A stretch of DNA of 64,000 nt from Minisyncoccia bacterium (GTDB lineage: Bacteria; Patescibacteriota; Minisyncoccia; 2-02-FULL-40-12; IGHO2-01-FULL-4-A): the NCBI GenBank assembly GCA_050015375.1, contig JBEKBN010000006.1, positions 454-64,453 of the forward strand. The letters are read 5' to 3'. A model generated the notes under the pieces. It made no database searches and was not told the origin of the DNA. It saw only the letters and a list, made by a program, of their open reading frames with translations. Made by a program: the position numbers and the translations under genes. Within the stretch, counting starts at the first letter, position 1, and the number at the start of each line of letters is the position of its first letter. This document shows, one piece after another, positions 5,849 through 64,000 of the stretch.

Positions 5849-6574
5849 ATGTATTTATCCGTCATTATTCCCGCCTACAACGAAGAAAAAAGGATCGGCA
5901 AGACGCTTTTGGCGGTGGATGAATATCTATCGGGACAAAAATACGATTCTGAGATTATCGTGGTGGATAATAATTCAAAGGACAAAACGGCCGATATTGT
6001 CAATAATTTAAAATTTAAAATTTATAATTTAAAATTAATTTCCCAGCCAATTCAAGGCAAAGGCAATGCCGTAGCCAAAGGAATGCTTGAAGCATGGGGC
6101 GATTATCGGGTTTTCATGGATGCCGACAATTCCACCTCCATAGATCATATTGAAAAAATGTGGCCGTTCATTTCGACCGGTTACGATGTTGTCATAGGAT
6201 CGCTCGCGGTCAAAGGCGCAAAGATTCTCCAAGGCGGAGCCGAACCGTGGTGGCGAGTGCTTTTGGGGAAACTCGGCAACAAATGGATCCAGATCTTCGC
6301 GGTCTGGGGAATAAACGATACCCAAAGAGGTTTCAAAATGTTCACGGCCAGAGCGACGGAAAAAATATTTCCGAAATTGACAATATTTGGCTGGGGATTT
6401 GATGTCGAAGTTTTGGCTTTAGCAAAAAAATACGGATACAAAATAAAAGAAATTCCGATAATCTGGGATAACGACCCAAATTCAACGGTGAATTTCTGGG
6501 CCTATCCACAAGTTTTAATGCAAACCGTAAAAGTCAGATGGAATCTATTGATCGGGAAGTATAATAGCCATTAG
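5849..6574 (+). CDS. family 2 glycosyltransferase (dolichyl/polyprenyl-phosphate sugar transferase-like)
   Basis: N-terminus SVIIPAYNEEKRIGKTL...IVVDNNSKDKT...DADNS carries GT2 DxD-type motifs. Confidence 0.8.
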   Translation: MYLSVIIPAYNEEKRIGKTLLAVDEYLSGQKYDSEIIVVDNNSKDKTADIVNNLKFKIYNLKLISQPIQGKGNAVAKGMLEAWGDYRVFMDADNSTSIDHIEKMWPFISTGYDVVIGSLAVKGAKILQGGAEPWWRVLLGKLGNKWIQIFAVWGINDTQRGFKMFTARATEKIFPKLTIFGWGFDVEVLALAKKYGYKIKEIPIIWDNDPNSTVNFWAYPQVLMQTVKVRWNLLIGKYNSH

Positions 6575-6638
6575 TTATTAGCCATTAGTTTTTAGAAAAA
6601 TCCTAAGTTCTAATGGTTAAGTCCTAATTACTAACTTG
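6568..6638. repeat. tract of ten heptanucleotide units (CCATTAG/TTATTAG...CTAATGG/CTAATTA/CTAACTT) filling the GT2-galT intergenic region
   Basis: Strict 7-nt periodicity with TAG/TAA anchors, running from the GT2 stop to the galT TTG start. The same CTAACTTG junction occurs at ftsE. Confidence 0.6.
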
Positions 6639-7646
6639 ATAAACGAATTTAGGCAAGATCTGGTTTCGGGCGAATGGGTGCTTTTCGCGACCGGAAGAGC
6701 GAAGAGGCCGGGCGAACCAACGGCGAACGGCAACGGCATCCGCATCGGCAAAAATTTTGAGGATTGTCCTTTCGATGACCCGGAAGCGAAGGGCAATGAG
6801 GTCTTGATGACCTATAAAAACGCCGACGGCTCGGATTGGTTCGCTAAGATCATCAAAAACAAATTTCCGGCGGTTTCCGAAGGCGAAATGGCGCCCCGCC
6901 AGAAAGTTGGCCCTTTCGAGGTGACCGATGCCAAGGGTTTGCACGAAATTTTGATCTTCAAAGATCATAATAAATCTCCATATCATTTGTCGCCAAAAGA
7001 ATTTTCAGAAATTATCAGGATCTACCGCGACCGTTATTTGACTTTGGCCGGCTACAGCGGCAGCAAATATATTTTGATATTTCACAATCACGGCTTAGCC
7101 GCCGGCGCCAGCATCCCTCATCCCCATTCCCAGATAATCACCATTCCGATCTTGCCACCCGACATCAAGCGGAGCATTTTGGGTTCGGAACGCTTTTACC
7201 GCGAGAACGGAAAACGGGTCTATGACCTGATGCTTGACTGGGAAATGAACGACAAAAAGAGGATCGTGGCTGAAAATGACGATTTTGTGGCATTTTGCCC
7301 GTTCGTTTCCAAAACCCCTTATGAAGTCAGGATATTCGGCAAAGAAAGCCACGCCCATTTTGAAAGAATTCCCGACCCCAAACTTCAGACATTGGGGGAA
7401 ATTATGAGCAAAGTTATGCGGAAGGTCAGCAAGGCCTTGAATGCTCCGGATTTCAATTATTTCATCCACACCGCGCCGACCGACGGCATGAGCCAAGATG
7501 TCCATGATTTTTACGCTTGGCATATTGAAATTTTACCCAAAATGAAAATTGAAGGCGCGTTCGAACTTGGCAGTGGCGTGGAGGTGAATGTAGTTGATCC
7601 CGACGAAGCGGCGAAACTTTTACGCGAAGCTGAAGTTGAAAATTAG
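6636..7646 (+). CDS. galT: galactose-1-phosphate uridylyltransferase (HIT family)
   Basis: TTG start. N-terminus GEWVLFATGRAKRP, a CPF zinc motif and the HIT-like active site PHPHSQI. Confidence 0.8.
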   Translation: MINEFRQDLVSGEWVLFATGRAKRPGEPTANGNGIRIGKNFEDCPFDDPEAKGNEVLMTYKNADGSDWFAKIIKNKFPAVSEGEMAPRQKVGPFEVTDAKGLHEILIFKDHNKSPYHLSPKEFSEIIRIYRDRYLTLAGYSGSKYILIFHNHGLAAGASIPHPHSQIITIPILPPDIKRSILGSERFYRENGKRVYDLMLDWEMNDKKRIVAENDDFVAFCPFVSKTPYEVRIFGKESHAHFERIPDPKLQTLGEIMSKVMRKVSKALNAPDFNYFIHTAPTDGMSQDVHDFYAWHIEILPKMKIEGAFELGSGVEVNVVDPDEAAKLLREAEVEN

Positions 7647-7648
7647 AG

Positions 7649-8260
7649 ATGTCAATATTTACCGCGATCATTAACTGGGCTTTGGCGATCATCGGCGCGA
7701 CTGGATATTTGGGCTTGTTTTTGGCGATGATGTTGGAAAGCGCCGGCGTTCCGATCCCCTCAGAAGTCGTTTTGCCATTCGCCGGTTTTTTGGCGGCTTC
7801 GGGGAAATTCAGTTTGATATTGGTGATCGTAGTGGCCACTACCGCCAACTTGACCGGCGCGCTCATTTTTTTCACTATTGGATATTTTGGCGGCACGAGA
7901 TTTTTACGAAAATATGGACACTTTTTATTTATACGCGAAAAAGAAATTTCGAGAATGGAGCGTTGGCTTGACCGCCACGGCGGCAAGGTCGCTTTTTTCT
8001 CAAGGATGTTGCCCGGCGTCAGGACCTACAGCTCATTGGTGATAGGTTCGGGCAAGTCAAGATTGCGGACGTTTATCGGTTATACGCTTCTGGGCTCGGT
8101 CATCTGGAATTCCATCTGGGCCTATCTCGGATATTACACCGGAAACCGCTGGGAAATATTCGGACCCTACGTCAGAAAATTTGATTATTTAATTCTGGCA
8201 GCGATAATCATTTATATCATTGCTTTTTTTGCCAGACATTTCGGTAGAAAAAATAAATGA
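7649..8260 (+). CDS. DedA/SNARE-associated family membrane protein
   Basis: Multi-TM protein with a DedA-type motif (GLFLAMMLESAGVPIPSEVVLPFAGFLAASG). Confidence 0.75.
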   Translation: MSIFTAIINWALAIIGATGYLGLFLAMMLESAGVPIPSEVVLPFAGFLAASGKFSLILVIVVATTANLTGALIFFTIGYFGGTRFLRKYGHFLFIREKEISRMERWLDRHGGKVAFFSRMLPGVRTYSSLVIGSGKSRLRTFIGYTLLGSVIWNSIWAYLGYYTGNRWEIFGPYVRKFDYLILAAIIIYIIAFFARHFGRKNK

Positions 8261-9015
8261 AGACATTAGTAGCAAACTGGAAAATGAATCCCCAAAAATT
8301 GGCTGAAGCCGAGGAACTTTTTGAATACACCATCGCCGAATCGGCCAAATATCCGAACGTCAAAACGATAATTTGTCCGCCGTTCGTCTTTATTGAGGAA
8401 TTGTCCAAATTTCTACAAACTACAAACTACAAACTACAAACTAGCATCGGTTCCCAAAATATTTTTTGGGAATCCAAAGGAGCATATACCGGTGAGATTT
8501 CCACCGAGATGCTGAAAAATTTCGGCGTTAGCCATGTTTTGGTCGGCCATTCCGACCGGCGATATGTCATCGGCGAAACGGACGAGGAAATTAATAAAAA
8601 AATAAAAGCCGCGCTTTTGACCGATATAACCCCGGTGCTTCTAGTTGGCGAGAGAGAAGGCGAGAACCGCGAAGAAATTTTGAGGAAACAATTATCCGCT
8701 GACCTGGCCGGCGTTTCGGCGCCCCATTTGGGGAAGATCCTTTTTGCCTACGAACCGGTCTGGGCAATAAGCACAAATCCGAATGCAAAACCCGATACGC
8801 CCGAAAACACTTTGAAGGCGATCACATTTATAAATAATCTTCTTGCTATCAGCTATAAACTACCAGCCATAAGCTGTCTCTATGGCGGTTCGGTCAATGA
8901 AAAAAATATCGTTGATTTTCTCAAACATCCGGAAATCTCCGGCGCCGTCGTCGGCGGAGCCAGTTTGCGAAAAGAAGAATTTGGAAAAATGTTAAACTTA
9001 GTTTCAACAATTTAA
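8257..9015 (+). CDS. tpiA: triosephosphate isomerase
   Basis: ANWKMNP...VGHSDRRYVIGETDEEI...GGAS motifs. Overlaps the dedA stop (ATGA). Contains an in-frame heptamer-repeat insertion. Confidence 0.9.
   Translation: MKTLVANWKMNPQKLAEAEELFEYTIAESAKYPNVKTIICPPFVFIEELSKFLQTTNYKLQTSIGSQNIFWESKGAYTGEISTEMLKNFGVSHVLVGHSDRRYVIGETDEEINKKIKAALLTDITPVLLVGEREGENREEILRKQLSADLAGVSAPHLGKILFAYEPVWAISTNPNAKPDTPENTLKAITFINNLLAISYKLPAISCLYGGSVNEKNIVDFLKHPEISGAVVGGASLRKEEFGKMLNLVSTI
8413..8447. repeat. (CTACAAA)x4 heptamer tract inside tpiA, in frame, encoding LQTTNYKLQT
   Basis: Four perfect CTACAAA units plus a degenerate fifth (CTAGCAT). They map to a loop that is shorter in B. subtilis TPI. Confidence 0.7.
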
Positions 9016-12311: not shown

Positions 12312-12875
12312 ATGTCTTGGCAAATCTGTAAGCCGAATTCTGTTCCCCCACTTTTTGAGTTGCCCCAAAAGTGGGGGAGGCGATCATTTATCTGGTCCCT
12401 CGGTTACCCTCGGGATCTAGCGTCTCTTCCCCCACTTTTTAAGTTGCCCTAAAAGTGGGGGACACGGACTTGCACCGGGCAGGGTTTAGCGCGCATCCAT
12501 GTCGCCATGGAGCGGTCCCGTTCGGGGCCTTTTCACCCGTGATCCGCTTGCGCGGACTCGGAATAGTTTCTGTGCCACTTTCCCTGAATTTTGATAAATA
12601 ACTTTTGTCTTAAGAACAAAAACTATCCATCTTATATTCGGTGGCCATTAGCCACTGCCCTGCTTACGCAATCACCAACTGCTAATCTCTAATCTCAAAT
12701 AAAACCATTGGCGATCTTAGTTAACAATTAATGATTGCGTAAGCGGTGTTCGGACTTTCCTCCCTAAAACATTTTGCTTTCGCAAAATGTTCGGGCGATC
12801 AATTCGCAAAGCGAATTGATTTAGCCCCAAATCCAATAAGAATTCGTAGAGTAATCACCCGATTTACCAGGACTT
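12312..12875 (-). ncRNA. rnpB: RNase P RNA (bacterial type A-like) with an extended helix and twin hairpin insertions
   Basis: Reverse complement carries GGGAGGAAAGUCCGAAC (P4 5'), CAGGGCAG, AGUGGCACAGAAAC, CGCGCAAGCGGAUCACGGGUGAAAAGG, CUAAACCCUGCCCGGUGCAAG and ACAGAAUUCGGCUUACAG (J/P4 3'). These align with E. coli M1 RNA. The 5' and 3' ends are approximate. Confidence 0.8.
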
Positions 12876-23630: not shown

Positions 23631-25460
23631 ATGCAAAACATCCGCAATTTTTGTATAATTGCTCACATAGACCATGGCAAAAGCACCTTAGCCGACCGGC
23701 TTTTAGAATTGACGGGCACAATTGAAAAGCGCAAAATGCACGAACAATTTCTGGACCAGATGGAATTGGAGCGTGAAAGAGGGATTACCATAAAACTCCA
23801 ACCCGTCCGCATGCAATACGGCGAATATATTTTGAATTTAATAGATACGCCGGGCCATGTGGATTTCACCTACGAAGTTTCTCGTTCGCTGGCGGCGGTG
23901 GAGGGTGCGATTTTACTTGTGGATGCCGCCAAAGGCGTTCAAGCCCAGACACTGGCCAATTTGCATTTGGCGCAAAGACAGAATTTGGTCATTATTCCGG
24001 TCATCAACAAAATTGATCTACCCAATGCCAGAGTGGCCGAAGCCGAAGAAGAAATTTCCAATTTGCTTGCCGTTGAACCGGACGAAATTATCAAGATTTC
24101 CGCCAAGACCGGTGAAGGCGTGGAGAAAGTTCTTGAAGCGGTTGTCGAAAAAATTCCCCCGCCATCTACTCACTACTCACTACCAACTACCAACTATCCT
24201 CGCGCCCTGATTTTTGATTCCGCTTTTGACGCTTACAAAGGCGTTGTCGCTTATGTCAGGATTTTTGACGGCAACTTCCGGGCCGGAGACAAAATTAAAC
24301 TTTTCGCTTCCAAAGCCGAAGCCGAGATAATCGAAGTTGGTCAGTTTAAACCCGCCTTGAGCAAAACCGATTCTATCGGCGAAGGTGAGATCGGCTATAT
24401 CGCCACCGGTTTGAAAAATCCCGGCGATGTCCGCGTTGGTGATACGGTTTTCTCTACAAACTATAAACCACAAACTACAAACTTTTCACCCCTTCCCGGC
24501 TACAAAGAACCGATGCCGGTGGTTTTCGCCAGTTTTTTTCCGGAAAAAGGGGAAGATTATGATCTGCTGAAAGACGCGCTGGGAAAACTGAAATTGACCG
24601 ATGCCTCGCTGACTTATGAACCGGAATCTTCACCAGCCCTCGGCCGGGGTTTTCGCCTTGGCTTTCTGGGTATGCTCCACACCGAGATCATCAGTGAGCG
24701 GTTGCGCCGGGAATTCAAATTGTCGCTGATAATTTCCTCGCCGTCGGTGGAATATCACATTTTGAAAAAGAACGGCCAAGAAATTCCCATCCGTTCGGCA
24801 TCAGAGATGCCCAATCCGAGTTATATTGATAAAATTTTCGAACCGACGGTTGTGCTGGAATTGTTGAGCCCATCTGAATATCTCGGTTCATTGATGAAAC
24901 TTCTTTCCGAAATGCGAAGCTCTTATCTAGCCACTGATTATTTGACCAAGGAAATCGTGATTTTAAAATACAAAGTCCCGCTGACTGAAATTGTGACCGA
25001 TTTTTATGACAAACTGAAAAGCGTCAGTTCCGGTTACGCTTCGATGAGTTATTCACCCCCACACTCATTAGATGAGTGTGGGGGCAAGCAGGATGGCTAT
25101 GAGGAATCTGATCTGGTTCGGCTGGATATTTTGGTGGCCGGGGATTTGGTTGAACCGTTTTCGAGAATGGTTCCGAGATCGCGCGTTCATGACGAAGGCA
25201 AGAGAATTGTCGAGAAGTTGAAGAAAATAATTCCGCGGCAATGGTTCGCGGTGGCGATCCAAGCGGCCATCGGCGGGAAAATAATCGCTCGGGAAACCAT
25301 CAGCGCTTTGCGAAAAGATGTTACCGGTTATCTCTACGGCGGGGATATTACCCGCAAGAAAAAATTATTGGAGAAGCAAAAGAGGGGGAAGGCGAGGATG
25401 AAAGAGGAAGGCAAGGTGAATATTCCGCAGAATGTGTTTCTGGAGATGCTGAAAAAGTAG
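23631..25460 (+). CDS. lepA: elongation factor 4 (LepA)
   Basis: IRNFCIIAHIDHGKSTLADRLL...DTPGHVDF and a C-terminus matching E. coli LepA. Contains three in-frame repeat insertions. Confidence 0.92.
   Translation: MQNIRNFCIIAHIDHGKSTLADRLLELTGTIEKRKMHEQFLDQMELERERGITIKLQPVRMQYGEYILNLIDTPGHVDFTYEVSRSLAAVEGAILLVDAAKGVQAQTLANLHLAQRQNLVIIPVINKIDLPNARVAEAEEEISNLLAVEPDEIIKISAKTGEGVEKVLEAVVEKIPPPSTHYSLPTTNYPRALIFDSAFDAYKGVVAYVRIFDGNFRAGDKIKLFASKAEAEIIEVGQFKPALSKTDSIGEGEIGYIATGLKNPGDVRVGDTVFSTNYKPQTTNFSPLPGYKEPMPVVFASFFPEKGEDYDLLKDALGKLKLTDASLTYEPESSPALGRGFRLGFLGMLHTEIISERLRREFKLSLIISSPSVEYHILKKNGQEIPIRSASEMPNPSYIDKIFEPTVVLELLSPSEYLGSLMKLLSEMRSSYLATDYLTKEIVILKYKVPLTEIVTDFYDKLKSVSSGYASMSYSPPHSLDECGGKQDGYEESDLVRLDILVAGDLVEPFSRMVPRSRVHDEGKRIVEKLKKIIPRQWFAVAIQAAIGGKIIARETISALRKDVTGYLYGGDITRKKKLLEKQKRGKARMKEEGKVNIPQNVFLEMLKK
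24166..24200. repeat. heptamer tract (CTACTCA x2, CTACCAA x2, CTATCCT) in frame inside lepA, encoding STHYSLPTTNYP
   Basis: Five 7-nt units with a CTA anchor. Absent from E. coli LepA at the equivalent PAPQGDPDAPLQ position. Confidence 0.65.
24454..24488. repeat. heptamer tract (CTACAAA/CTATAAA/CCACAAA/CTACAAA) in frame inside lepA, encoding TNYKPQTTNF
   Basis: Same unit as the tpiA tract. About 7 extra residues relative to E. coli LepA. Confidence 0.65.
25056..25084. repeat. palindromic element CCCCCACACTCA-TTAGA-TGAGTGTGGGGG (copy 2) inserted in frame in lepA, encoding SPPHSLDECGG
   Basis: Perfect 12-bp arms with a 5-nt loop. Adds about 11 residues relative to E. coli LepA between GYAS and SDLV. 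Confidence 0.75.
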
Positions 25461-26477: not shown

Positions 26478-27107
26478 TTGAAATATCAACTGGCAATGTT
26501 TGATTTGGATGGCGTTTTGATGGAAACGAGAGATGTGGCCTATCGGGCGTGCGTCGAGATATTTGAGACATACGGCGTTCCGCCGCCTCCTCGGAATGTT
26601 TTTTTCGCGGAAGTGGACGGCGATTACATGGAGTTCTATTGGAAATACGGAATTCCCAGAACCGCCTCAAAAAAAGATCTAAACGCCATTTTCAATCGCC
26701 GATATCGGGAAGAAAAAGACAAAATTCAGGCGCGGAATGGAACCAGGTCCATGCTTTCACTTTGCCGGCTCAAAAACATGAAGACGGCTATTGTCAGCGG
26801 TTCAACTAGGTATATCTGCGATCTTTTCGCTTCGTCGGAACAATTGGATCATCAATTTGATTTCATTGCCGCCAATGCCGCCAAAGCGATCGCGATACAA
26901 GCCGTAATGGGGAAATTCAAGATTGAACCCCGTCACGCGTTTTTCGTGGATGATGCGGTCAGCGGGATCAAGGCGGCGAAATCGTGCGGAGTCTTTTCCG
27001 TCGGTATCTTCGGCGGTTTCAGCGAACGCGAAGCCATTGCCAACGCAAAGCCAAGTCTGATGATCAACGAGATGGGCGAACTCTGGCAACTCATCCGAAA
27101 GCCATAA
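26478..27107 (+). CDS. HAD-superfamily hydrolase
   Basis: Motif I FDLDGVL at the N-terminus and a C-terminal DD motif (FFVDDAVSG). Confidence 0.75.
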   Translation: MKYQLAMFDLDGVLMETRDVAYRACVEIFETYGVPPPPRNVFFAEVDGDYMEFYWKYGIPRTASKKDLNAIFNRRYREEKDKIQARNGTRSMLSLCRLKNMKTAIVSGSTRYICDLFASSEQLDHQFDFIAANAAKAIAIQAVMGKFKIEPRHAFFVDDAVSGIKAAKSCGVFSVGIFGGFSEREAIANAKPSLMINEMGELWQLIRKP

Positions 27108-40065: not shown

Positions 40066-40749
40066 ATGAAAAAAAATATATTGATAATTTTAGTGTATGG
40101 ATTGCTGGCGGTGTCGCTGTTTGTGTTTGGTAATCGGGTGTTTGCGGACCAAGTCACCGGAACTCTGACAACAGGAATTAGCGGCAATAACGGCCAAACA
40201 ATGAATGGCGTGGTCATTGCTCCGCCGATACCTAGCCCATTGCCCGGAACCTATCCCTTAACACAGGATAACGTGGCCCTAAAAGTTGGTTTGTCTTCCG
40301 CCGGTTCGATGAGTATTCGCTATGCTACAGATGGGTCTGTACTGACATGCGCTAACGGGAATCTATACAATGCTAATGCTCTGATTCCGGTGAGTGTCAC
40401 AACGACAATTGAGGCAATCTCGTGTTATCCAAATGGAATTTCATCTGCGGTCGCTGGTTTCACTTATACAATTAATCCGGCGACTCCGACTCCAACGCCT
40501 ACCACATCTACTGGTGGCGGCGGGGGAGGCGGGGGCTCATATTATTCCTTTACCCCGACCCCAACTCCGAGTCCAGGTGTGGCCATAGTGGGCGATATAA
40601 ACGGTAATGGTAAGGTGGATATTAGTGACTTCGATATGTTGATGAACAATTGGGGGAAAACCGGAACTGGAATCCAAGGCGATTTGGACCACAACGGCGT
40701 TGTTGATATATTGGATTTTAATTTATTGATGGCTAACTGGAGTAAATAA
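40066..40749 (+). CDS. dockerin-domain secreted protein
   Basis: C-terminus GDINGNGKVDISDFDMLMNNWGK...GDLDHNGVVDILDFNLLMANWSK is two canonical dockerin type I Ca-binding repeats. Also carries a signal peptide and a Gly8 linker. Confidence 0.7.
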   Translation: MKKNILIILVYGLLAVSLFVFGNRVFADQVTGTLTTGISGNNGQTMNGVVIAPPIPSPLPGTYPLTQDNVALKVGLSSAGSMSIRYATDGSVLTCANGNLYNANALIPVSVTTTIEAISCYPNGISSAVAGFTYTINPATPTPTPTTSTGGGGGGGGSYYSFTPTPTPSPGVAIVGDINGNGKVDISDFDMLMNNWGKTGTGIQGDLDHNGVVDILDFNLLMANWSK

Positions 40750-40768
40750 TTACGACAAAATCACAAAC

Positions 40769-41518
40769 ATGAAAAAAATATTGTTCAGTTCAATACTGGT
40801 CACTGGATTCGCGGTTTTTTTTGTCGGAAATGCTCTGGCCGATTCATCAATATCGTTGTCGCCGGTTAGTATTTCTCCGAAAGCGGGAAGCACGGTCAAT
40901 GTTACCGTGACGGTCAATCCAAATAGCGTCAGTAATTCAACCGTAAAGCTTGTACTTAATTATCCCGCCGATCTTCTGCAAGCAACAGGATTCACTTTTG
41001 CCGGTAACTGGATGCCGTTGACTCAAACCGGTTACGATTCCATCGATAACACAGGAGGTACCCTGATTAAAACTGGCGGTTATCCGGGCGGATTCTCGAC
41101 AACCACGACCCTTGGCACGGTAACATTCAAAGCGAAGAGAACCGGCACCGGCGCAATCAGTATCGGAAGCGGTTCAATGGTTCTGGATTTAAGCAGTAAA
41201 AATGTTTTGACCGATATTTCTTCAACTGTGACAATTTCAATTCCGACTTTAACAGCGCCGACTCCGAAACCGTCAACAATTGTAGGCAATATTCCGGCAG
41301 TTTCGCCGGTAACTGGCGTCACTGAATCGGCGACGCCGAGCCCCATTGTCGCCGCCAATGCATTGCCAGCCAATGGCCAGCAATACGGCACTATCGCCAC
41401 GGCCCTCGGAATTCATAACGGCACGTGGTGGATTTGGCTAGTAGTTCTCTTGGTCATCATCTATCTCATCTATCGGATATTCAGGAAAAGATCCGGCCCG
41501 AGCCAGCCGACTCAATAA
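40769..41518 (+). CDS. cohesin-like domain protein with a C-terminal TM anchor
   Basis: Signal peptide and a beta-sandwich region (VKLVLNYPADLLQATGFTFAGNW...GTVTFKAKRTGTGAISIG) resembling cohesin. C-terminal anchor WWIWLVVLLVIIYLIYRIFRKR. Confidence 0.5.
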   Translation: MKKILFSSILVTGFAVFFVGNALADSSISLSPVSISPKAGSTVNVTVTVNPNSVSNSTVKLVLNYPADLLQATGFTFAGNWMPLTQTGYDSIDNTGGTLIKTGGYPGGFSTTTTLGTVTFKAKRTGTGAISIGSGSMVLDLSSKNVLTDISSTVTISIPTLTAPTPKPSTIVGNIPAVSPVTGVTESATPSPIVAANALPANGQQYGTIATALGIHNGTWWIWLVVLLVIIYLIYRIFRKRSGPSQPTQ

Positions 41519-41706: not shown

Positions 41707-42243
41707 ATGAAAATACCGCTACCAAAACTCAAGGCGATTATTAGGTATTTTGGTACCCATACTGATCCCAAATTTCTCGGCAAGGTTAAATTAATGAAAC
41801 TTTTCTACTTTCTTGATTTCATGCATGTCAAAAAATTTGGTGCACCCATAACATATGACTGTTATATCAACTTAGAACATGGTCCAATACCGTCAGCTAT
41901 TAAAAATCTAGTTGACTCGGCCGCAGATGATATTGATAATTCCGTCCTCGCTGACGCAATCAGGATTGAAAGACCGCAAAGTACCGATATGTACAGAGTG
42001 GTGCCTCTTAGGGAATTCAATAAAGCTGATGAAAATTATTTCTCTGAAACCGAGCTCGAAACATTAAAAAAAGTATGCGCAAGGTTTAGCGACAAAAATA
42101 CGAAATTCATTGAAGATGAATCTCACAAAGAAGCTCCGTGGAAAGAAACCAAGTTTTTGGATGTAATACCCTACGAACTCGCCACTAAGGACAAAGATTG
42201 TTTAATATCCGAAGAAGAAATAAAACTACTTCTTTCTATCTGA
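41707..42243 (+). CDS. Panacea-domain (DUF4065, SocA/PanA-like) antitoxin
   Basis: KVKLMKLFYFLDFMHVKKFGAPITYDCYINLEHGPIPS and ESHKEAPWKETKFLDVIPYELA match the DUF4065/Panacea consensus (KLQKLLYF..., SHxExPW). Confidence 0.75.
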   Translation: MKIPLPKLKAIIRYFGTHTDPKFLGKVKLMKLFYFLDFMHVKKFGAPITYDCYINLEHGPIPSAIKNLVDSAADDIDNSVLADAIRIERPQSTDMYRVVPLREFNKADENYFSETELETLKKVCARFSDKNTKFIEDESHKEAPWKETKFLDVIPYELATKDKDCLISEEEIKLLLSI

Positions 42244-46683: not shown

Positions 46684-47758
46684 ATGACTACTTTGCGTGA
46701 AGAATTGAATAGTATGCAAGATAAGTGCCGTGCCGTGCGGCACCGTCTTTGACCTAGGCGAATCGCGAGAAAAAATCAAGCAAATTGAAACCGAAATGCA
46801 AGCGCCCGGTTTTTGGAATAACAACGAAAAAGCCGGTAAAGCGTCAAAAGAATTAAATGATCTAAAAACCGAAGTCGAATTCTGGGAAACAACGATGCTG
46901 GAACTGGACGAATTCGGAAAGATGTCCGACGAGGAAATTCAGAAAAAAGAAATCGAAATCCGAGCTTTCAAAAAGAATTTCGACAAAGAATACATAAAAA
47001 TATTTTTGTCAGGAAAATACGACAAAGGCAATGCCCTTTTGTATGTCTATTCCGGCGCCGGCGGCGTGGACGCCCAGGATTGGGCTTCAATGCTTTTGCG
47101 GATGTATCAGAAATACGCCGAGCGCGAGGGTTATGGCTGGACGCTTTTGCAACAGTCCTTTGGCGAGCAGAACGGCACCAAAAGCGCCGTCGCCGAGATC
47201 ACCGGCCGCTGGGCTTACGGAAAATTGCGGGGCGAGGCCGGTGTTCATCGTTTGGTCAGGATTTCACCCTTCTCGGCCAAGTCGTTGCGCCACACATCGT
47301 TCGCTCTCGTGGACGTGCTTCCCGAGATTGAAGATGTTAAAATTAATATTGACCCGAAAGATCTGCGAATTGATACTTTTCGGTCATCGGGACCGGGCGG
47401 ACAGAATGTCAACAAACTGGAAACGGCCGTCAGGATCACCCATATTCCGACGAATCTGACCGTTGCCGTCCAATCGGAGCGTTCTCAAGCCCAGAACAAA
47501 GCCAAAGCCATGACGCTCTTGCAATCCCGTCTGGCGCAATTGATGGAAGAGAAAAAAATTCAGGAAATTTCCGAGCTTCGGCTTGACACCAAAGACAGCG
47601 CCATTGAATGGGGTAGTCAGATCCGTTCCTATGTCATTCATCCTTACAAGATGGTCAAAGACCACCGGACCGAGGTTGAGACGACGCAGGTTGACAAGGT
47701 TCTGGAAGGGGAGTTGGATGAATTCATAGAAAAAGAGTTGGTGGTTGGTAGGTCGTAG
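46684..47758 (+). CDS. prfB: peptide chain release factor 2, with a programmed +1 frameshift: join(46684..46749,46751..47758)
   Basis: Frame 0 reads MTTLREELNSMQDKCRAVRHRL then CTT TGA C (46747-46753). The +1 frame continues DLGESREKIKQ...SGPGGQNVNK...GSQIRSYV. Confidence 0.88.
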
Positions 47759-47780
47759 TTTGTAGATTGGAACGCCAAAA

Positions 47781-47816
47781 CTACTTACTACTCACTACTT
47801 ACTACAAACTAACTTG
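47781..47816. repeat. heptamer tract (CTACTTA/CTACTCA/CTACTTA/CTACAAA/CTAACTT) abutting the ftsE TTG start
   Basis: Five 7-nt CTA-anchored units ending CTAACTTG, the same junction as at the galT TTG start. Confidence 0.6.
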
Positions 47817-48497
47817 ATCGAGTTTAAAAATCTGACAAAAATTTACGAACCAAATATCGTGGTTCTGGACAACATCAACCTTGAAATTAAAAAAGGCGAG
47901 TTTGTTTCTTTGGTCGGACTTTCCGGCGCCGGCAAATCCACGATGATGAAAATGCTGACCAAAGAAGAAAAACCGACCAAAGGCAAAGTTCTAATAGACA
48001 AAATCGATGTTGATTCGATCGAGGGTAAAGAAATTCCATATTTCCGGCGGACCATCGGCACGGTTTATCAGGATTATAAATTATTAACCGCCAAAACCGC
48101 CTACGAAAATGTCGCCTTCGCCATGGAAGTTTCCGATGCCACCAAAGACGACATCGCCAAAGACGTGCCTCAGATCTTATCTATCGTCGGTTTGGCCGAC
48201 AAGAGCGGAAATTTTCCCAGCCAGTTGTCGGGCGGCGAGAAACAGCGACTGGCCATTGCCCGGGCGCTCATCCACCGGCCGAAAATCCTTCTCGCCGACG
48301 AGCCGACCGGCAATCTGGATTTGGTCAACAGTTTTGATGTGGTAAAATTATTATTGAAGATAAACGAGCTGGGCACGACAGTCATTTTGGCCACCCATGA
48401 CACCAATATCGTCAACACCATCGGCCGGCGGGTGGTCAGCATGGACAAAGGCAAGATCGTCAAAGACCAATTAGAGAACGGAAGATACGTAATATGA
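47814..48497 (+). CDS. ftsE: cell division ATP-binding protein FtsE
   Basis: TTG start. Walker A GLSGAGKST, LSGGEKQRLAIARAL and ILLADEPTGNLD. An ftsX-like gene follows immediately. Confidence 0.88.
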   Translation: MIEFKNLTKIYEPNIVVLDNINLEIKKGEFVSLVGLSGAGKSTMMKMLTKEEKPTKGKVLIDKIDVDSIEGKEIPYFRRTIGTVYQDYKLLTAKTAYENVAFAMEVSDATKDDIAKDVPQILSIVGLADKSGNFPSQLSGGEKQRLAIARALIHRPKILLADEPTGNLDLVNSFDVVKLLLKINELGTTVILATHDTNIVNTIGRRVVSMDKGKIVKDQLENGRYVI

Positions 48498-56543: not shown

Positions 56544-57427
56544 TCTGGATCCTTCTGGCAATTCTGTCCCAATTCATCTCCGCCGGCGTTTACATGGCCG
56601 ACAAGTATCTTGTTGGACCCAAAGCCATCGGCCGGCCGGTGGTTTACGCCATCTATGTCTGCTTGCTTTCGGGTTTCGTTTTGGTTTTATTGCCTTTTGG
56701 CGTGGTTTTGCCGCTGACCTGGCCGCTAATTGCGCTTTGTCTGGGGATCACGGTTGCTTTCACGACTTCCCTATTATTTCTTTATTCCGCTCTTAAAACT
56801 TCTGATGTTTCGGATGTGGCGCCGGTCATGGGCGCGATCTCGGCCGTGGCCACATTGGCTTTCGGACTGTATTTTTTGGATTCAATGCTGCCCAGATTAT
56901 TTTTCATCGGCTTTCCGCTTTTGATATTCGGGACTTTTCTGATGTCGCGTTTTCGGTTTAATAAGAAATCCTCCTTTTATGTTATCGCCGCCGGAATTCT
57001 TTTCGGACTTTCATCGATTTTAATAAAAATATTGTTCGGAGAAACCTCATTTCTTAACGCGTTTTTCTGGTCGCGGATGACGAATGTTTTCGGCGCGATA
57101 ATTTTACTTTTGTGGCCGGCGAATTTCAAAGCCGTGTTCAGCAATGTCAAAAGTTCGACCGGCGGAACGAAAATTTTGGTCGTCGGCAACAAAACGCTGG
57201 CCGGTATCGCCTATCTCTTATCGCTGGTGGCAATAAAACTCGGCAATGTTACCGTCGTCAACTCATTGGCCGGTTTTGAATTCGTTTTTATTTTGCTTCT
57301 GGCTTTTATTTTCACTTATAAATTTCCGAAATATTTTCAAGAGGCCGTTCACAACAAAAACGACCGGCTGAAAAAGATCTGGGCTTCGGGTTTGATAATA
57401 ATCGGGTTCGTGATCATGTTCCTATGA
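56540..57427 (+). CDS. hypothetical polytopic membrane protein (about 10 TM)
   Basis: 295 aa and strongly hydrophobic. No motif. Confidence 0.5.
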   Translation: MIWILLAILSQFISAGVYMADKYLVGPKAIGRPVVYAIYVCLLSGFVLVLLPFGVVLPLTWPLIALCLGITVAFTTSLLFLYSALKTSDVSDVAPVMGAISAVATLAFGLYFLDSMLPRLFFIGFPLLIFGTFLMSRFRFNKKSSFYVIAAGILFGLSSILIKILFGETSFLNAFFWSRMTNVFGAIILLLWPANFKAVFSNVKSSTGGTKILVVGNKTLAGIAYLLSLVAIKLGNVTVVNSLAGFEFVFILLLAFIFTYKFPKYFQEAVHNKNDRLKKIWASGLIIIGFVIMFL

Positions 57428-58509
57428 AGAAGCACAAAAAATATTTTTCAATTCCCATTATCCTTTTCTTGATCCTTTTGGTTTTAACCTTGGCTTGGAA
57501 TTTGCTTTCCATCAGGCCGGTTCCCGAAAAAGTAAATTACGGCGTTTCGTTCAGCGTTTTTCATTCCAACGAACTCAATCTGGATTGGAAAAAAACATAT
57601 TTGGCGATCTTAGACGATCTTAAGGTCAGGAACTTGCGGCTTACCGCTCATTGGCCGCTGACCGAGCCGGCCGACGGCAAATACGATTTCTCAGAATTGG
57701 ATTTTCAGATAAACGAAGCCGATAAACGCGGCGCGACCTATATTCTGGCCGTCGGCCGGCGCCTGCCCGGCTGGCCGGAATGCCATGTGCCGGATTGGGT
57801 TATGAATCAAGAATCACAAATCACGAATCAAGGTGAAAAAACTGATTTTGAGAACCAAAAGTTATTGGAATATATTCAGACGACCGTTGAGCGTTACAAA
57901 AATTCCCCCGGTCTGAAATATTGGCAAGTCGAGAATGAACCGTTCCTAGGATTTTTCGGCCGTTCGAGCTGCCAATTGACCGACGAGAATTTTTTCAAAC
58001 AGGAGATCGCTCTTGTCCATAAACTCGATCCGACCCATCCGGTTCTGGCGACCGACAGCGGCGAGTTCGGCTATTGGTATCAGGCCTACCGCGACGGTGA
58101 TGTTTTCGGCACCTCCTTGTATCTGTATGTTTGGTGGCGGGCGCTTGGCATCGGCCCCTTGCGTTATCCCATCGGGCCGTCGTTTTTCCGAGTGAAGCAA
58201 AATGTGGTTGATTTTATCGGTTGTGTCTTGGGCGATTCACCCTCACACTCAATTTTTGAGTGTGAGGGCAAGCCGACAATTCTCATTGAACTGGAAGCCG
58301 AGCCCTGGCTTTTAACACCGATCGTTGACGCGCCGATGGCGACTCTCCTTGACCGGATGGGGATTGATAAATTCGAAACCATGATCCAAACCGCCAAAGA
58401 AGCCGGTTTTGGCGACCAATATCTCTGGGGCGCCGAGTGGTGGTATTGGATGGAACAAAATGGCCATCCGGAATTTTGGCAGGCGGCGAAGCAACTTTTT
58501 AACCAATAA
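57424..58509 (+). CDS. glycoside hydrolase, clan GH-A (GH5/GH113-like)
   Basis: Signal/TM N-terminus, then YWQVENEPF (acid/base NEP) and LIELEAEPW (nucleophile Glu). The family is not resolved. Confidence 0.55.
   Translation: MKKHKKYFSIPIILFLILLVLTLAWNLLSIRPVPEKVNYGVSFSVFHSNELNLDWKKTYLAILDDLKVRNLRLTAHWPLTEPADGKYDFSELDFQINEADKRGATYILAVGRRLPGWPECHVPDWVMNQESQITNQGEKTDFENQKLLEYIQTTVERYKNSPGLKYWQVENEPFLGFFGRSSCQLTDENFFKQEIALVHKLDPTHPVLATDSGEFGYWYQAYRDGDVFGTSLYLYVWWRALGIGPLRYPIGPSFFRVKQNVVDFIGCVLGDSPSHSIFECEGKPTILIELEAEPWLLTPIVDAPMATLLDRMGIDKFETMIQTAKEAGFGDQYLWGAEWWYWMEQNGHPEFWQAAKQLFNQ
58240..58268. repeat. palindromic element variant CCCTCACACTCA-ATTTT-TGAGTGTGAGGG (copy 4), in frame in the GH-A hydrolase gene
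   Basis: Both arms carry a compensatory change (C to T paired with G to A), so pairing is preserved. Encodes SPSHSIFECEGKP. Confidence 0.75.
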
Positions 58510-60527: not shown

Positions 60528-61278
60528 AAGTGAGGAAAATCAGTTGTGCCGCCTCGGTTGCCGCCTCTAGGTTTAGAGGCAAAAAACGGGGGCTGGCCGT
60601 CTTCCCGGCCCGGCCGAGAAGATGGCCAGCCGACCCGCCGGCAGACCTTATCCACAGCCATTTGCTTGTGGACGGCGCGCGCGGGTTCTACAATGTATTC
60701 ATAACCGTTTAATTATCCACACTTTCGGGCTTGTATGATGTGTGGCTGATAGCATAAAATAAGGTAACGGTTAGTTTCGATGACGATGGTTGACGCAGGG
60801 AAAGGGTTTTGCTAGTATTGAGTGCGAGCCGCAAACAGACGGAGTTCATTGTTTGTTGACGGATATAAACAAGGAAAATCAATGCTTTTAAGAGATCGGA
60901 AAACTGCTGTCAGAAAGTAACCGTTTTGGTTGTTTTTTGCGTTATGCGGATCAATGTCAGTGCGAACTCTAATTACTAATGGCTATTCTTCGCTCCGACA
61001 TTGGTCTACATGGAATGGACATTGAAAACCGAATATATTGTTGCTCTTGATTGAAATTCTATGTAAGTTTTCTATTGATATTGTTGAGTCTTAAATCGGT
61101 CGAGCAAACGTGTTGGCGATAAGGGTCCGTGGTCGAACCCGGATCCGAAATAGCCAGACATGGTAAATCAAGACTCTAGTTTAAGACAAGGAATTATTTC
61201 TCTATTGTTCCCGGGTCAATTGACAAGGGAGCGATAAAGATATGACCGAATAAAAAAGGTCAAAAAATAAAATTAATT

Positions 61279-64000
61279 ATGAGTATTAACTTATCCAACC
61301 GCGGTTCCTTGAAAAAGGTTCTTCCGGTTGTAGTCATTGCGGCAGCGATGCTGGCAGTGGCGGGGTATGTCTGCTTCTCGGCGATTCAAGCCAGCGCAGC
61401 CACGCCTGCACAATACGGATTAAAGGAAGGCATGACCATCAGCGCGGTCGGTTCCAACGATCCGGATGTCTATATCATCAATGACGCGGGTTACAAGAGA
61501 TTGTTCATCAACCCGATCATTTTCAATATGTATGGTCAGTTGGGTGGATTCGCTGACGTACATTCCGTCTCGGCGGCAGTCCGGGACGCTTTCCCGACAT
61601 CGGGATTGTTCCGAAACTGCGAAGCCAACACCCAAGCAGTTTACGGCCTTGAAGTTACCGGCGAAGACACCGGTGTCCTTCACTGGGTGAATGTTACCGG
61701 CGATCAGGCGGTAGCCCAGGACCCGAACTTCTTCCAGAAAGTTTTCTGCATCAACAACAATGAGTTTAATTGGTACACGAATAATGGAACGAATTTCGGA
61801 GCCAATTATTCCTCAATCAGCCAGATCCCGAATTATTCCAGAACACCGGGAGTAACTCCGACATACACTCCAATTCCCAGCGGCCCGATTTCAGTAAGCT
61901 TAGCTTACGACAATCCGCCGTCTGGCACATTAGTCAAATCACAGGCAGCCGCTGATCTCGCCCATTTCCAATTCACCGGAAATAGCGTGGTCACCAATAT
62001 CCAATTTAACAGAATTGGCATCTCGGCTGACACCGACTTGGCTAATGTCTATCTGTACGATGGCGTGAAGCGTTTGACCGATGCCGCGAGCGTCACAAAT
62101 GGCCAGATCACTTTCAACGACACAAGCCCAACCGGCTTATTCACGGTCAATGGCTCACGGGTCATTTCCGTGCGTTCAGACCTGTCATCGAGCACCGGAG
62201 AAACTGTTGGAATTCAGCTCGTCCGCGTTAATGGCAATGCCGTTAACATTTCGGGCAACTTATTTACTGTTGCCAATGCTACATTGGCTACGGTTGTCCT
62301 TTCCAATGGAACAACTCCGGCCGCGAATGATTCTCTTGATCCGGCGAGCGATGTCGTGGTTTGGCAGGATACTGCCACTATCGGCACCCGTTATGTTTGG
62401 ATGAAGAGCTTGCAGATTCGAGTTATCGGTTCTGTCTATGTCGGCGACCTTCAGAACTTCCGTCTCTTAGTTGACGGCGTTCAACAGGGCCAGGCAATTT
62501 CGCAGTCCGATGCCAACGGTTATGTCGTGTTTGATTTGTCCGGTGCTCCGGTAAAACTTGAAACCGGCGGACGCGTCTTGAAAGTTTTGGCTGATGTCAT
62601 CAATGGCTCCAGCAGGAATTTCACGGCGTCATTGCGTCAAGCTCCAGACATATTCGTAGTTGATAACCAGTATGGTCAGAATGTGTTAGCCACGGTCCTT
62701 ACCGGTTCGTTCCCGGACAGCGCCGGCGAACAGACCATCAGCTCCGGCACTTTGACCTTCACCAGAACGCAAGATTCTCCATCGGGAGATGTAGTTAAAG
62801 GCGCCTCTGGCGTGACCTTGGCCAGGTTTGAATTAAAGGCCAATGGTGAAAAGATGAAAGCCGAAAGCTTACGGGCCAATGTTACTTATGCTCCGTTAGG
62901 AGTTACCGGCGCGAAAGCCGCATTTACCCTTCGTAACGGCGCACTGTTCGTCTATGATGAAGCGGCTGGAGTTTCTACGGCTACCCAGATCGGCAGTACC
63001 GCCGCTCTCTGCGGTTCCGGCAATCACACTTGCTCGGGCTATTCAGCTGCCGCCTCGCTTTCCTACACATCATACAGCCTGGGTTCTTCTTTGATCGTTG
63101 AACCGGGCCATCCGAAGATCATTGAAATTCGTGCTGACGCGTATGATGACGGCGATGCTACCGCGTTAACTTCAACCGATACCCTTGTTGCCAACTTTGC
63201 TATCGGCTCGACCAATGTTCAGAGCTTAACCTCTCTGGCATACACAAATGGTCCTACGGCCGCTAAAGCAGGCAATATATTGACCGTAAAAACCGGTTCA
63301 TTCTCCGTTGCAAAATACACGGGTTATGCCAACCAATCAGCGGTAACGCCGTCAAATGGCGTTAAGATCGGACACTTCACATTAATCGATACATCTACCG
63401 AAGATATCAACGTCAATACGATTACCTTCGATGTTGATCAATCCGGCAATATCGGTGCTACTTCGATTACAGACGCTTATATCAAGGTCTATAATGATAC
63501 CGGCTCTGTGATTTACACTTCGCCTTCTAAGGCCAGCATTTCAGTTTCTGCGTCAAACAGCTATTCGGTAAACTTTGTCATACCGAAGAATAAGACCTAT
63601 CAGGTTGAAGTTTGGGGTAATATCGCCGCCGGCCTTACAGCTACGACTGATTACTTCGACTTGAACTTAGACGCTTCTGGAATAACCACAAGTTCTTCCA
63701 CTACCGCGACGGCCACGCAGGCCACCGGACAGGTTATTACAATCCGGTCAGGTTCGTTGAATACCGCTAATGGTGCGGTTCCAGCAGCTCGATTGATCAA
63801 CGGAGGCCAGAGAGCGAATGTCTATAGCTTCACCATTACGCCGACTTATGACGACTACACGCTTGATGAAGTTTATGTGGATATCGCAAGCGGAACCGTT
63901 GCTTCAAACAGCGGTGCGGTTGCCAACTTGTACTTAACGGACGGTTCAACAACCTTGGGTACGGCCACATTAAACAGTTTGACTGGTTCGGCCTCATTCA
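61279..64000 (+). CDS. giant repeat-rich surface (S-layer/adhesin-like) protein, 5' part (partial, runs off window end)
   Basis: ATG at 61279. Signal peptide VLPVVVIAAAMLAVAGYVCFSAIQASAA, then more than 900 codons of open frame rich in T/S/N/G beta-repeat sequence to the window end. Not listed in the ORF track because it is open-ended. Confidence 0.7.
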   Translation, partial: MSINLSNRGSLKKVLPVVVIAAAMLAVAGYVCFSAIQASAATPAQYGLKEGMTISAVGSNDPDVYIINDAGYKRLFINPIIFNMYGQLGGFADVHSVSAAVRDAFPTSGLFRNCEANTQAVYGLEVTGEDTGVLHWVNVTGDQAVAQDPNFFQKVFCINNNEFNWYTNNGTNFGANYSSISQIPNYSRTPGVTPTYTPIPSGPISVSLAYDNPPSGTLVKSQAAADLAHFQFTGNSVVTNIQFNRIGISADTDLANVYLYDGVKRLTDAASVTNGQITFNDTSPTGLFTVNGSRVISVRSDLSSSTGETVGIQLVRVNGNAVNISGNLFTVANATLATVVLSNGTTPAANDSLDPASDVVVWQDTATIGTRYVWMKSLQIRVIGSVYVGDLQNFRLLVDGVQQGQAISQSDANGYVVFDLSGAPVKLETGGRVLKVLADVINGSSRNFTASLRQAPDIFVVDNQYGQNVLATVLTGSFPDSAGEQTISSGTLTFTRTQDSPSGDVVKGASGVTLARFELKANGEKMKAESLRANVTYAPLGVTGAKAAFTLRNGALFVYDEAAGVSTATQIGSTAALCGSGNHTCSGYSAAASLSYTSYSLGSSLIVEPGHPKIIEIRADAYDDGDATALTSTDTLVANFAIGSTNVQSLTSLAYTNGPTAAKAGNILTVKTGSFSVAKYTGYANQSAVTPSNGVKIGHFTLIDTSTEDINVNTITFDVDQSGNIGATSITDAYIKVYNDTGSVIYTSPSKASISVSASNSYSVNFVIPKNKTYQVEVWGNIAAGLTATTDYFDLNLDASGITTSSSTTATATQATGQVITIRSGSLNTANGAVPAARLINGGQRANVYSFTITPTYDDYTLDEVYVDIASGTVASNSGAVANLYLTDGSTTLGTATLNSLTGSASF

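Follow-up and report, generated by a model that had tools for sequence, protein, structure and literature searches.

Heptad-repeat palindromes inserted at two stop/start junctions in a Minisyncoccia genome

In the genome of a bacterium of the Minisyncoccia, the space between a gene for a GT2 glycosyltransferase and a galT-like gene with a TTG start codon is filled by a tract of 7-nt units, and a similar tract lies in front of another TTG-initiated gene, ftsE. Does such a tract serve the translation of the gene behind it, or has it been placed there by another process and then been tolerated? A first-pass annotation of this DNA had suggested a translation-initiation or insulator element. The question is addressed here in a stretch of 64 kb, hereafter called the window, from a metagenome-assembled genome (MAG) of roughly 1 Mb that belongs to the Patescibacteria, or candidate phyla radiation (CPR), together with related loci and genomes from other phyla. 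This comparison shows that both tracts are palindromes recently inserted at tightly packed, co-directional stop/start junctions.

The tract between GT2 and galT (6565-6635) is an imperfect palindrome of 71 nt that occupies the entire spacer; its 7-nt units are anchored on TAG or TAA. The GT2 gene (5849-6574, + strand; Pfam PF00535) ends with the TAG at 6572-6574, and the galT-like gene (GalP_UDP_transf/DUF4921; 6636-7646, + strand) starts with the TTG at 6636. This start had been called correctly in the first-pass annotation, as 14 homologues begin M[IL]NEFRQDLVSGEWV at that column and a gene caller agrees. The unit structure, the stops in all frames and the complete filling of the spacer were likewise recognized at that stage. 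The tract had also been described as a continuous run of ten units beginning at the GT2 stop. Ten units are indeed present, but they are arranged in two five-heptad arrays that are inverted with respect to each other, with a register shift of 4 nt at the loop, and the first base lies 7 nt before the stop. The final GT2 codons, three in number, and the stop, which is the second TAG of the 5' arm, are therefore encoded by the tract. In the alignment, the C-terminus of GT2 reads ...GKYNSH-TAG in the window versus ...GKYK-TAA in relatives.

The 5' arm (6565-6595, + strand) reads TAGCCAT TAGTTAT TAGCCAT TAGTTTT TAG and is the only part of this tract reported as tandem by Tandem Repeats Finder (TRF), with which tandem units were called. 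It is separated by a loop, AAAAATC (6596-6602, + strand), at which the heptad register is broken, from the 3' arm (6603-6635, + strand), CTAAGTT CTAATGG TTAAGTC CTAATTA CTAACTT, which constitutes the entire galT leader. Unit lengths of 7 nt, and of 8 nt in a relative described below, are not multiples of three, so that the stop triplet of a unit falls in all frames; the TAG triplets at 6565, 6572 and 6579 thus place stops in all three. As + strand RNA, the two arms are predicted to pair in an interrupted hairpin (-21.6 kcal/mol, z -3.85; z scores were computed against dinucleotide shuffles), in which the GT2 stop sits within the 5' strand of the stem and both T's of the galT TTG are paired in the basal helix. 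The 3' arm also holds a four-codon mini-open reading frame (ORF), ATG GTT AAG TCC TAA (6613-6627), which is out of the galT frame and ends 8 nt before the TTG.

The prfB/ftsE junction carries the second palindrome. Its 5' arm (47736-47770, + strand), AGTTGGT GGTTGGT AGGTCGT AGTTTGT AGATTGG, encodes the last codons of prfB (…LVVGRS) and the stop TAG at 47756-47758. In the centre, AACGCCAA (47771-47778, + strand), a tip helix TTGG/CCAA closes a 4-nt loop. The 3' arm (47779-47813, + strand), ACTACTT ACTACTC ACTACTT ACTACAA ACTAACT, is the entire ftsE leader, is free of G and contains a final TAA as its only stop codon. The ftsE gene itself (47814-48497, + strand; protein beginning MIEFKNLTK) is TTG-initiated at 47814, directly 3' of the heptads, as had been annotated before. 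The tract 47736-47813 folds at -30.2 kcal/mol (z -3.69), with the prfB stop inside the 5' strand of the predicted stem and the ftsE TTG 4 nt beyond its foot. Both palindromes fold better as the sense strand, by 2.3 and 8.6 kcal/mol, which is not used as evidence here. They have no common full-length consensus; what they share are the repeated cores and the 11-mer ACTAACTTGAT, of which the window has exact copies only at the galT and ftsE starts. The claim that the two junctions are the same can therefore be kept for the last unit with the adjoining TTGAT, and has to be dropped for the penultimate units (CTAATTA versus CTACAAA).

How these junctions looked before can be read from relatives. The gene order adk-map-GT2-galT-VTT-tpiA-pgk is kept there, and GT2 and galT are either 1 nt apart or overlap by 8 nt. 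Where the gap is 1 nt, the junction is TAA-T-ATG, and the relatives' ...GGGAAATATAAATAAT-ATG-TTAAACGAATTT aligns with ...GGGAAGTATAAT[AGCCATTAG...CTAAC]TTG-ATAAACGAATTT in the window; the whole tract corresponds to a single gap in the relatives, between ...TATA and ATG. The prfB and ftsE genes overlap by ATGA (...GAGATCTCAAAATGATAGAG) in a relative with 93% identical FtsE, are separated by 5 nt in a relative with 87% identical FtsE, and lie 3 nt apart in a further one (locus L128). In the window, a 79-nt palindrome has taken the place of about nine bases, among them the A of the ATG. These closer relatives came from a protein search, while a metagenome scan with FtsE gave mostly distant relatives (best 60%). 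Phased CTA tracts, of which the 64-kb window has seven, are absent from 61 kb of seven related loci. Since relatives with the same gene order lack the tracts and have abutting or overlapping genes, both palindromes are recognized as recent insertions. Thanks to the close relative, the breakpoints are readable in the alignment at prfB|ftsE; those at GT2|galT are not resolvable in it. Inspection by eye found neither target-site duplications nor a common left junction. One relative (L006, 4236-5120) carries an insertion of a reverse-transcriptase gene (RVT_1) and a HicAB pair immediately upstream of GT2-galT, which makes this position in the conserved gene order a repeated insertion site.

The same alignments show what the insert has contributed on either side. 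The stop of the upstream gene is supplied by a TAG of the 5' arm, and the TTG of the downstream gene by the joining of the last unit, CTAACT, to a retained TGAT. Both genes originally began ATGAT, and a common origin or microhomology therefore explains the junction ACTAACTTGAT at least as well as a function would. To judge from the bases involved, the junction is best explained in this way rather than as a start signal.

It had been argued that the tract must have a role because both genes start with TTG and have no Shine-Dalgarno (SD) site. This argument is not supported, since about 45 of the 55 long ORFs of the window have neither an SD site nor heptads. By a crude count, an SD-like motif precedes only about 10 of the 55, and one TTG-start ORF, at 26478, has a strong SD and no tract. 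Moreover, as relatives with the same gene order have ATG starts and no tract, the TTG is a consequence of the insertion and not something that the tract serves. What survives of the proposed initiation or insulator element is an association of arrays with gene starts, which extends beyond the window; conservation and specificity do not. The tract is probably not a dedicated TTG-initiation element but a tolerated repeat insertion with a modest coupling effect, although a dedicated initiation or insulator role is possible.

The reading that we favour, and to which we give about an even chance, is that the repeat insertion is compatible with translation, is tolerated, and probably maintains translational coupling between the two genes. 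The tract would persist because its fixed polarity suits translation. Its 5' arm would stop ribosomes in every frame, and its 3' arm would act as an SD-free leader, G-free at ftsE, like most leaders in this SD-poor genome. The hairpin would bring stop and start together at the foot of one stem, and a ribosome terminating in the 5' arm could melt this stem and so expose the start. Structure-mediated coupling would then have taken over from coupling by overlap. Pairing of a downstream start with the end of the upstream cistron is the basis of structure-mediated translational coupling in, for example, operons of RNA phages. The predicted arrangement in the window is alike, with the upstream stop in the 5' strand and the downstream leader and start in the 3' strand. 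It differs in that the stem is a newly inserted repeat palindrome instead of evolved coding sequence, and in that coupling is putative.

The two palindromes are not isolated occurrences. The pattern CTAN4CTAN4CTA is found 15 times in the window versus 0.04 expected, and CTACN3CTAC 11 times versus 0.15 expected, where the expectations were taken from shuffles. The tracts belong to a genome-specific family of CTA[A/C]NNN heptads, in which the core CTA[A/C] is near-invariant and positions 5-7 are variable (deviations per position 1, 2, 0, 1, 8, 7 and 6). TRF reports rows of period 7 or 14 at 6565-6595, 8413-8443, 24166-24196, 24454-24483 and 47736-47811, and the arrays are uniform in size, at about 30-35 nt or roughly five units. 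Three members lie on the + strand inside essential genes, where they encode loop segments rich in Thr, Asn, Tyr and Gln. The tpiA array (8413-8443) consists of 4.4 units of CTACAAA, is 100% perfect and is translated in frame (LQTTNYKLQT) as part of a hypervariable loop. In lepA, the first array (24166-24196) comprises CTACTCA twice and CTACCAA twice, and the second (24454-24483) CTACAAA CTATAAA CCACAAA CTACAAA; both are in loops that are 4 amino acids longer than in the solved EF4. Every copy in coding sequence has CTA on the sense strand; in the opposite orientation, TAG would appear in all frames.

A dispersed copy, CTAATTACTAATGGCTA (60969-60985, + strand), is non-coding and matches the reverse complement of 6565-6581 at 16 of 17 bases. 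It is situated in a 740-nt non-coding region (60540-61280) upstream of a large secreted-protein gene, which also contains G+C-rich palindromes at 60591-60631 and 60666-60693 and has no Rfam match at the gathering threshold. Unrelated heptads occur in coding sequence as well, namely AATTTAA (4.6 units; 6005-6036) in GT2 and GAATCAA (4 units; 57804-57832) in the ORF 57424-58509, and the genome as a whole seems to be prone to arrays of 7-nt units. A heptad-like array rich in A (AAAAATC AAAAATC AAAATGC AAAATGA ...; 1178-1230) extends over the end of rpsE and a 23-nt spacer. The rplO ATG follows at 1238, and in a relative rpsE and rplO are called 1 nt apart. Two candidates were rejected as family members: a weak period at 8846-8872 in tpiA coincides with a conserved SYKLP-like segment and is probably due to chance, and the heptads at 12682-12700 amount to just 2.7 units inside an ordinary, well-paired helix of the RNase P RNA. 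This RNA (12313-12810, - strand) is of type A and measures 498 nt, as against 367 positions in the model. It has a 132-nt insertion at P8/P9 that includes a well-paired hairpin (12662-12744) with 24-nt arms, in which the 2.7 heptads TAATCTC are contained. Near-identical CCCCCACTTTT...AAAAGTGGGGG hairpins are present in it at 12344-12383 and 12423-12462. Among the other contents of the window, adjoining small proteins (40066-41518 and 41707-42243) with weak dockerin/cohesin Pfam matches, followed by a protein with a Pfam match to the SocA/Panacea antitoxin domain, are unusual for a CPR genome.

The promiscuity of the insertion sites, protein loops included, bears on the view that the arrays are neutral by-products of replication slippage or template switching, and that biases of position and orientation merely reflect which insertions were not lethal. 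Tandem 7-nt repeats are familiar from the cyanobacterial short tandemly repeated repetitive (STRR) heptamers. With these and with other heptanucleotide long simple-sequence repeats (LSSR) the window arrays have in common that tandem 7-nt units are over-represented, lineage-specific and mostly intergenic. Heptanucleotide repeats are the most abundant LSSR in prokaryotes and were attributed to polymerase slippage, according to Mrazek 2007 as reported in PMC4679880, and the lineage-specific arrays with their rapid turnover would agree with such an origin. In contrast to LSSR and STRR, the window arrays are short, uniform at about five units, and organized in pairs of fixed polarity. Their units are degenerate around an invariant core, which is unlike fresh slippage products; only the tpiA array is perfect, whereas the galT and ftsE arms share no more than CTA[A/C]. 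No variation in copy number, and hence no length polymorphism, was seen among three assemblies, possibly of one population. Furthermore, translation would probably be affected by a predicted stem of -21 to -30 kcal/mol that covers a leader and reaches the start codon. A purely neutral origin therefore appears quite unlikely to us.

The regular spacing of the triplets invites another thought, namely that the tract is an array of binding sites for an oligomeric RNA-binding protein that contacts one triplet per subunit every 7 nt, and that binding to the UAG arm opens the hairpin and so regulates the downstream gene. In the Bacillus hut terminator, the HutP sites are UAG triplets spaced by 4 nt, situated in the 5' part of a stem whose opening controls the downstream genes; each face of HutP reads three XAG triplets with 4-nt spacers, and the stem is thereby melted (PMC2425495). 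The 5' arms of the window resemble this closely, with five UAG triplets at exact 4-nt spacing in 6565-6595 and three in 47749-47765, and the combination of an invariant core and a free spacer is characteristic of sites of this kind. Nevertheless, the number of units is five as against three, the second cluster is CUA and not UAG, and the window tract has no terminator and, at the distance of a 12-17-nt linker, no further UAG cluster that would flank a terminator stem. The coding copies display just CUA in the mRNA, a regulatory logic common to galT and ftsE is not obvious, and similar arrays are found in many phyla from which HutP is not known. No HutP family match was obtained in scans of 28 window proteins from this 64-kb part of the genome. 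On balance, a binding-site array is highly doubtful.

Stable predicted stems between co-directional genes could also act on the transcript itself, as an intra-operon terminator, an attenuator or an mRNA-stabilizing stem like that of repetitive extragenic palindromic (REP) sequences and bacterial interspersed mosaic elements (BIME). Elsewhere, the arms of an array in a Paceibacterota MAG (L118, 5300-5470, - strand) are complementary and flank a terminator-like hairpin between co-directional genes, and in an Adlerbacteria locus the palindrome is situated between a stop codon and a terminator. However, the stems in the window are not G+C-rich, are interrupted every 4-5 bp and have no U-tract. Scans for promoter and terminator consensus sequences gave nothing in the tracts; no terminator-like site was found in 6400-6800, and within 47600-48000 none in the tract. 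Rfam 15 returned no match at E<=1 in 6500-6700 or 47700-47880, and at the gathering threshold the whole window yields only RNase P and three tRNAs, none of them at the tracts. REP and BIME are extragenic palindromes with a GTAG head. The likeness lies in the imperfect palindromes between co-transcribed genes and in the prominence of GTAG/CTAC in the ftsE copy, while the differences are that the core in the window recurs every 7 nt and not once at the head, that just two palindromes are present in 64 kb, and that these have no common full-length consensus. A Y1 (RAYT) transposase is not among the 28 proteins scanned. We regard a role in termination or RNA processing as very unlikely.

Related genomes have filled the same kind of junction with other repeats. 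A groundwater CPR relative (FtsE 84%, GalT 62% identical) possesses its own dispersed octamer array, [C/A]A[A/G]AGTTT, which fills the rplN/rplX, rpsH/rplF, rplF/rplR, prfB/ftsE and ftsE/ftsX junctions and ends 4-12 nt before the ATG (L004 1558-1602, 3095-3159, 3723-3795 and 8067-8145; L211 2939-2981 and 3676-3732). One octamer copy is found in frame inside the GT2 coding sequence of this relative (SFKVSKFQSFKVSKFQ). At locus L128 (4674-4724), the spacer that follows ftsE is occupied by four units of CAATTTA, the last of which stops one base short of the next ATG. Taken together, the 7-8-nt arrays of relatives end 1-12 nt before start codons of operon genes. It follows that junction-filling arrays of short units are recurrent in the clade, with lineage-specific units and fast turnover.

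Beyond the clade, species-representative genomes were scanned for five phased CTA triplets. The at least 120 loci listed, which are a sample and not a census, include cyanobacteria, Bacteroidota, Planctomycetota, Acidobacteriota, Firmicutes, nine Patescibacteria and others, with gene starts set by ORF rules rather than by curated calls. Since the search pattern required CTA, the sample cannot show that CTA is a conserved core outside the window; the results on polarity, orientation and arm complementarity do not depend on the pattern. Among the matches listed, to which all counts in this paragraph refer, opposed pairs read [TAG]n and then [CTA]n on either strand in 33 cases versus 3, and the three exceptions are CTAG-type units. 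Direct arrays with the start of a long ORF within 40 nt are in sense orientation in 24 cases versus 8 in antisense (p=0.007), and gene ends show the opposite preference (14 versus 31). If only ATG starts are considered, 17 of 27 distances between array and start are between -1 and 11 nt. The arms of one locus are complementary at variable positions in 0.70 of cases versus 0.48 for arms of different loci. Among the CPR examples are uvrA, rpmB and, downstream of a CIRCE (controlling inverted repeat of chaperone expression) element, a groES leader. In a Sungiibacteriota MAG (L019, about 7560-7710, - strand), both arrays lie in the groES 5' untranslated region (UTR), after a promoter and a CIRCE-like element.

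Arrays that point to starts in many phyla and end 0-12 nt before them, again among the matches listed, could indicate a selected cis-acting intercistronic cassette, in which a three-frame stop is combined with an SD-independent leader for ribosome landing. Such a function was proposed for the TAACTGA arrays of Beggiatoaceae. These heptamer direct repeats lie upstream of starts in marine Beggiatoaceae, cyanobacteria and Bacteroidetes (MacGregor 2015, PMC4679880) and are a published analogue with like placement and likewise without SD. The 7-nt unit contains stop triplets, which gives stops in three frames. The arrays run forward, and between their end and the start there are 0 to a few nt and no SD; likewise, the CTA arms of the window end at -1. 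Among the copies are some that extend over the upstream ORF's stop and others within ORFs, the latter only in the stop-free orientation. Ribosomal-protein operons are among their locations, and their distribution over lineages is sporadic. On the other hand, the unit is different, and the window has no TAACTGATAACTGA match with two or fewer mismatches. Copies are exact there and degenerate around a 4-nt core here. In the reference genome 1 of 170 sets is inverted (PMC4679880), whereas the junction tracts of the window are opposed pairs. The host in the window is a member of the Patescibacteria/CPR, and insertion at a known ancestral junction is demonstrable, as is the origin of the new stop and start.

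A selected cassette would also account for the independent filling of ribosomal-protein and prfB/ftsE/ftsX junctions in sister CPR lineages with other 7-8-nt arrays, and for the [TAG]n-[CTA]n polarity, by which stops come to lie next to gene ends, and next to gene starts a leader in which start codons are few (galT) or absent (ftsE). Several observations do not fit. Close relatives lack the tract at the same junctions and evidently manage with tighter ATG junctions. In the window, neither SD nor array precedes the start of most genes. The same units occur inside coding sequence, the leader arm is sequestered in a predicted hairpin rather than open, and the insertion weakened the start from ATG to TTG. 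We hold a selected cassette to be the main rival of the favoured reading, tentative and rather less probable than it.

The favoured reading, a tolerated insertion that keeps its neighbours coupled, has to face a number of points that weigh against it. We purely infer the coupling step from a modelled hairpin. In the ftsE palindrome 6 of 12 variable positions are complementary, which is near the null of 0.48, and pairing is mostly through the 4-5-bp cores; given this weak pairing at variable positions, the hairpin may simply follow from the arrays being opposed. RNA folding energy gave no consistent advantage of the sense strand in 11 start-adjacent palindromes of other genomes. Simple slippage followed by decay would not lead one to expect a conserved 4-nt core with a variable 3-nt spacer, nor arrays so uniform in size (about 31-35 nt), and these features hint at selection or at a factor that templates or binds the repeats. 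Across three assemblies, represented by the window and by two contigs elsewhere and possibly stemming from one population, the galT tract does not vary, and no slippage polymorphism was seen. Finally, the bias of the arrays towards starts, in orientation and in proximity, could reflect function beyond tolerance.

A wider view, speculative and rather unlikely in our estimation, is that [UAG-N4]n-spacer-[CUA-N4]n modules form a widespread, undescribed class of intercistronic or 5'-UTR elements of fixed polarity in SD-poor bacteria. The class may encompass Patescibacteria, Bacteroidota, cyanobacteria and others, with a CUA arm that ends a few bases before the start. Such modules may be selected as a three-frame stop joined to an SD-independent leader, possibly with a repeat-binding factor, or they may be the footprint of a process by which repeats are generated, with a 4-nt core set down every 7 nt. 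If either is true, the window shows two fresh births of a module, each with a new stop and a TTG start. No description of the palindromic array form and its polarity rule was found in the literature searched. From the known heptanucleotide arrays, the tracts of the window differ in the unit sequence, the degeneracy of the units, the palindromic pairing in fixed polarity and the host phylum.

With the ancestral state in hand, it can be followed how, in a streamlined CPR genome, a gene boundary is rewritten by a short repeat insertion. A junction with overlapping stop and start has become a structured spacer of 55-61 nt; the upstream protein has acquired a different tail, ended by a new stop, and the downstream gene has acquired a TTG start. 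Annotators should be aware that heptad tracts can sit in frame within essential genes such as tpiA and lepA. If the rules of orientation and polarity seen in the sample from many phyla prove to be general, these arrays would provide a handle on initiation and coupling in SD-poor bacteria such as Patescibacteria, Bacteroidota and cyanobacteria.

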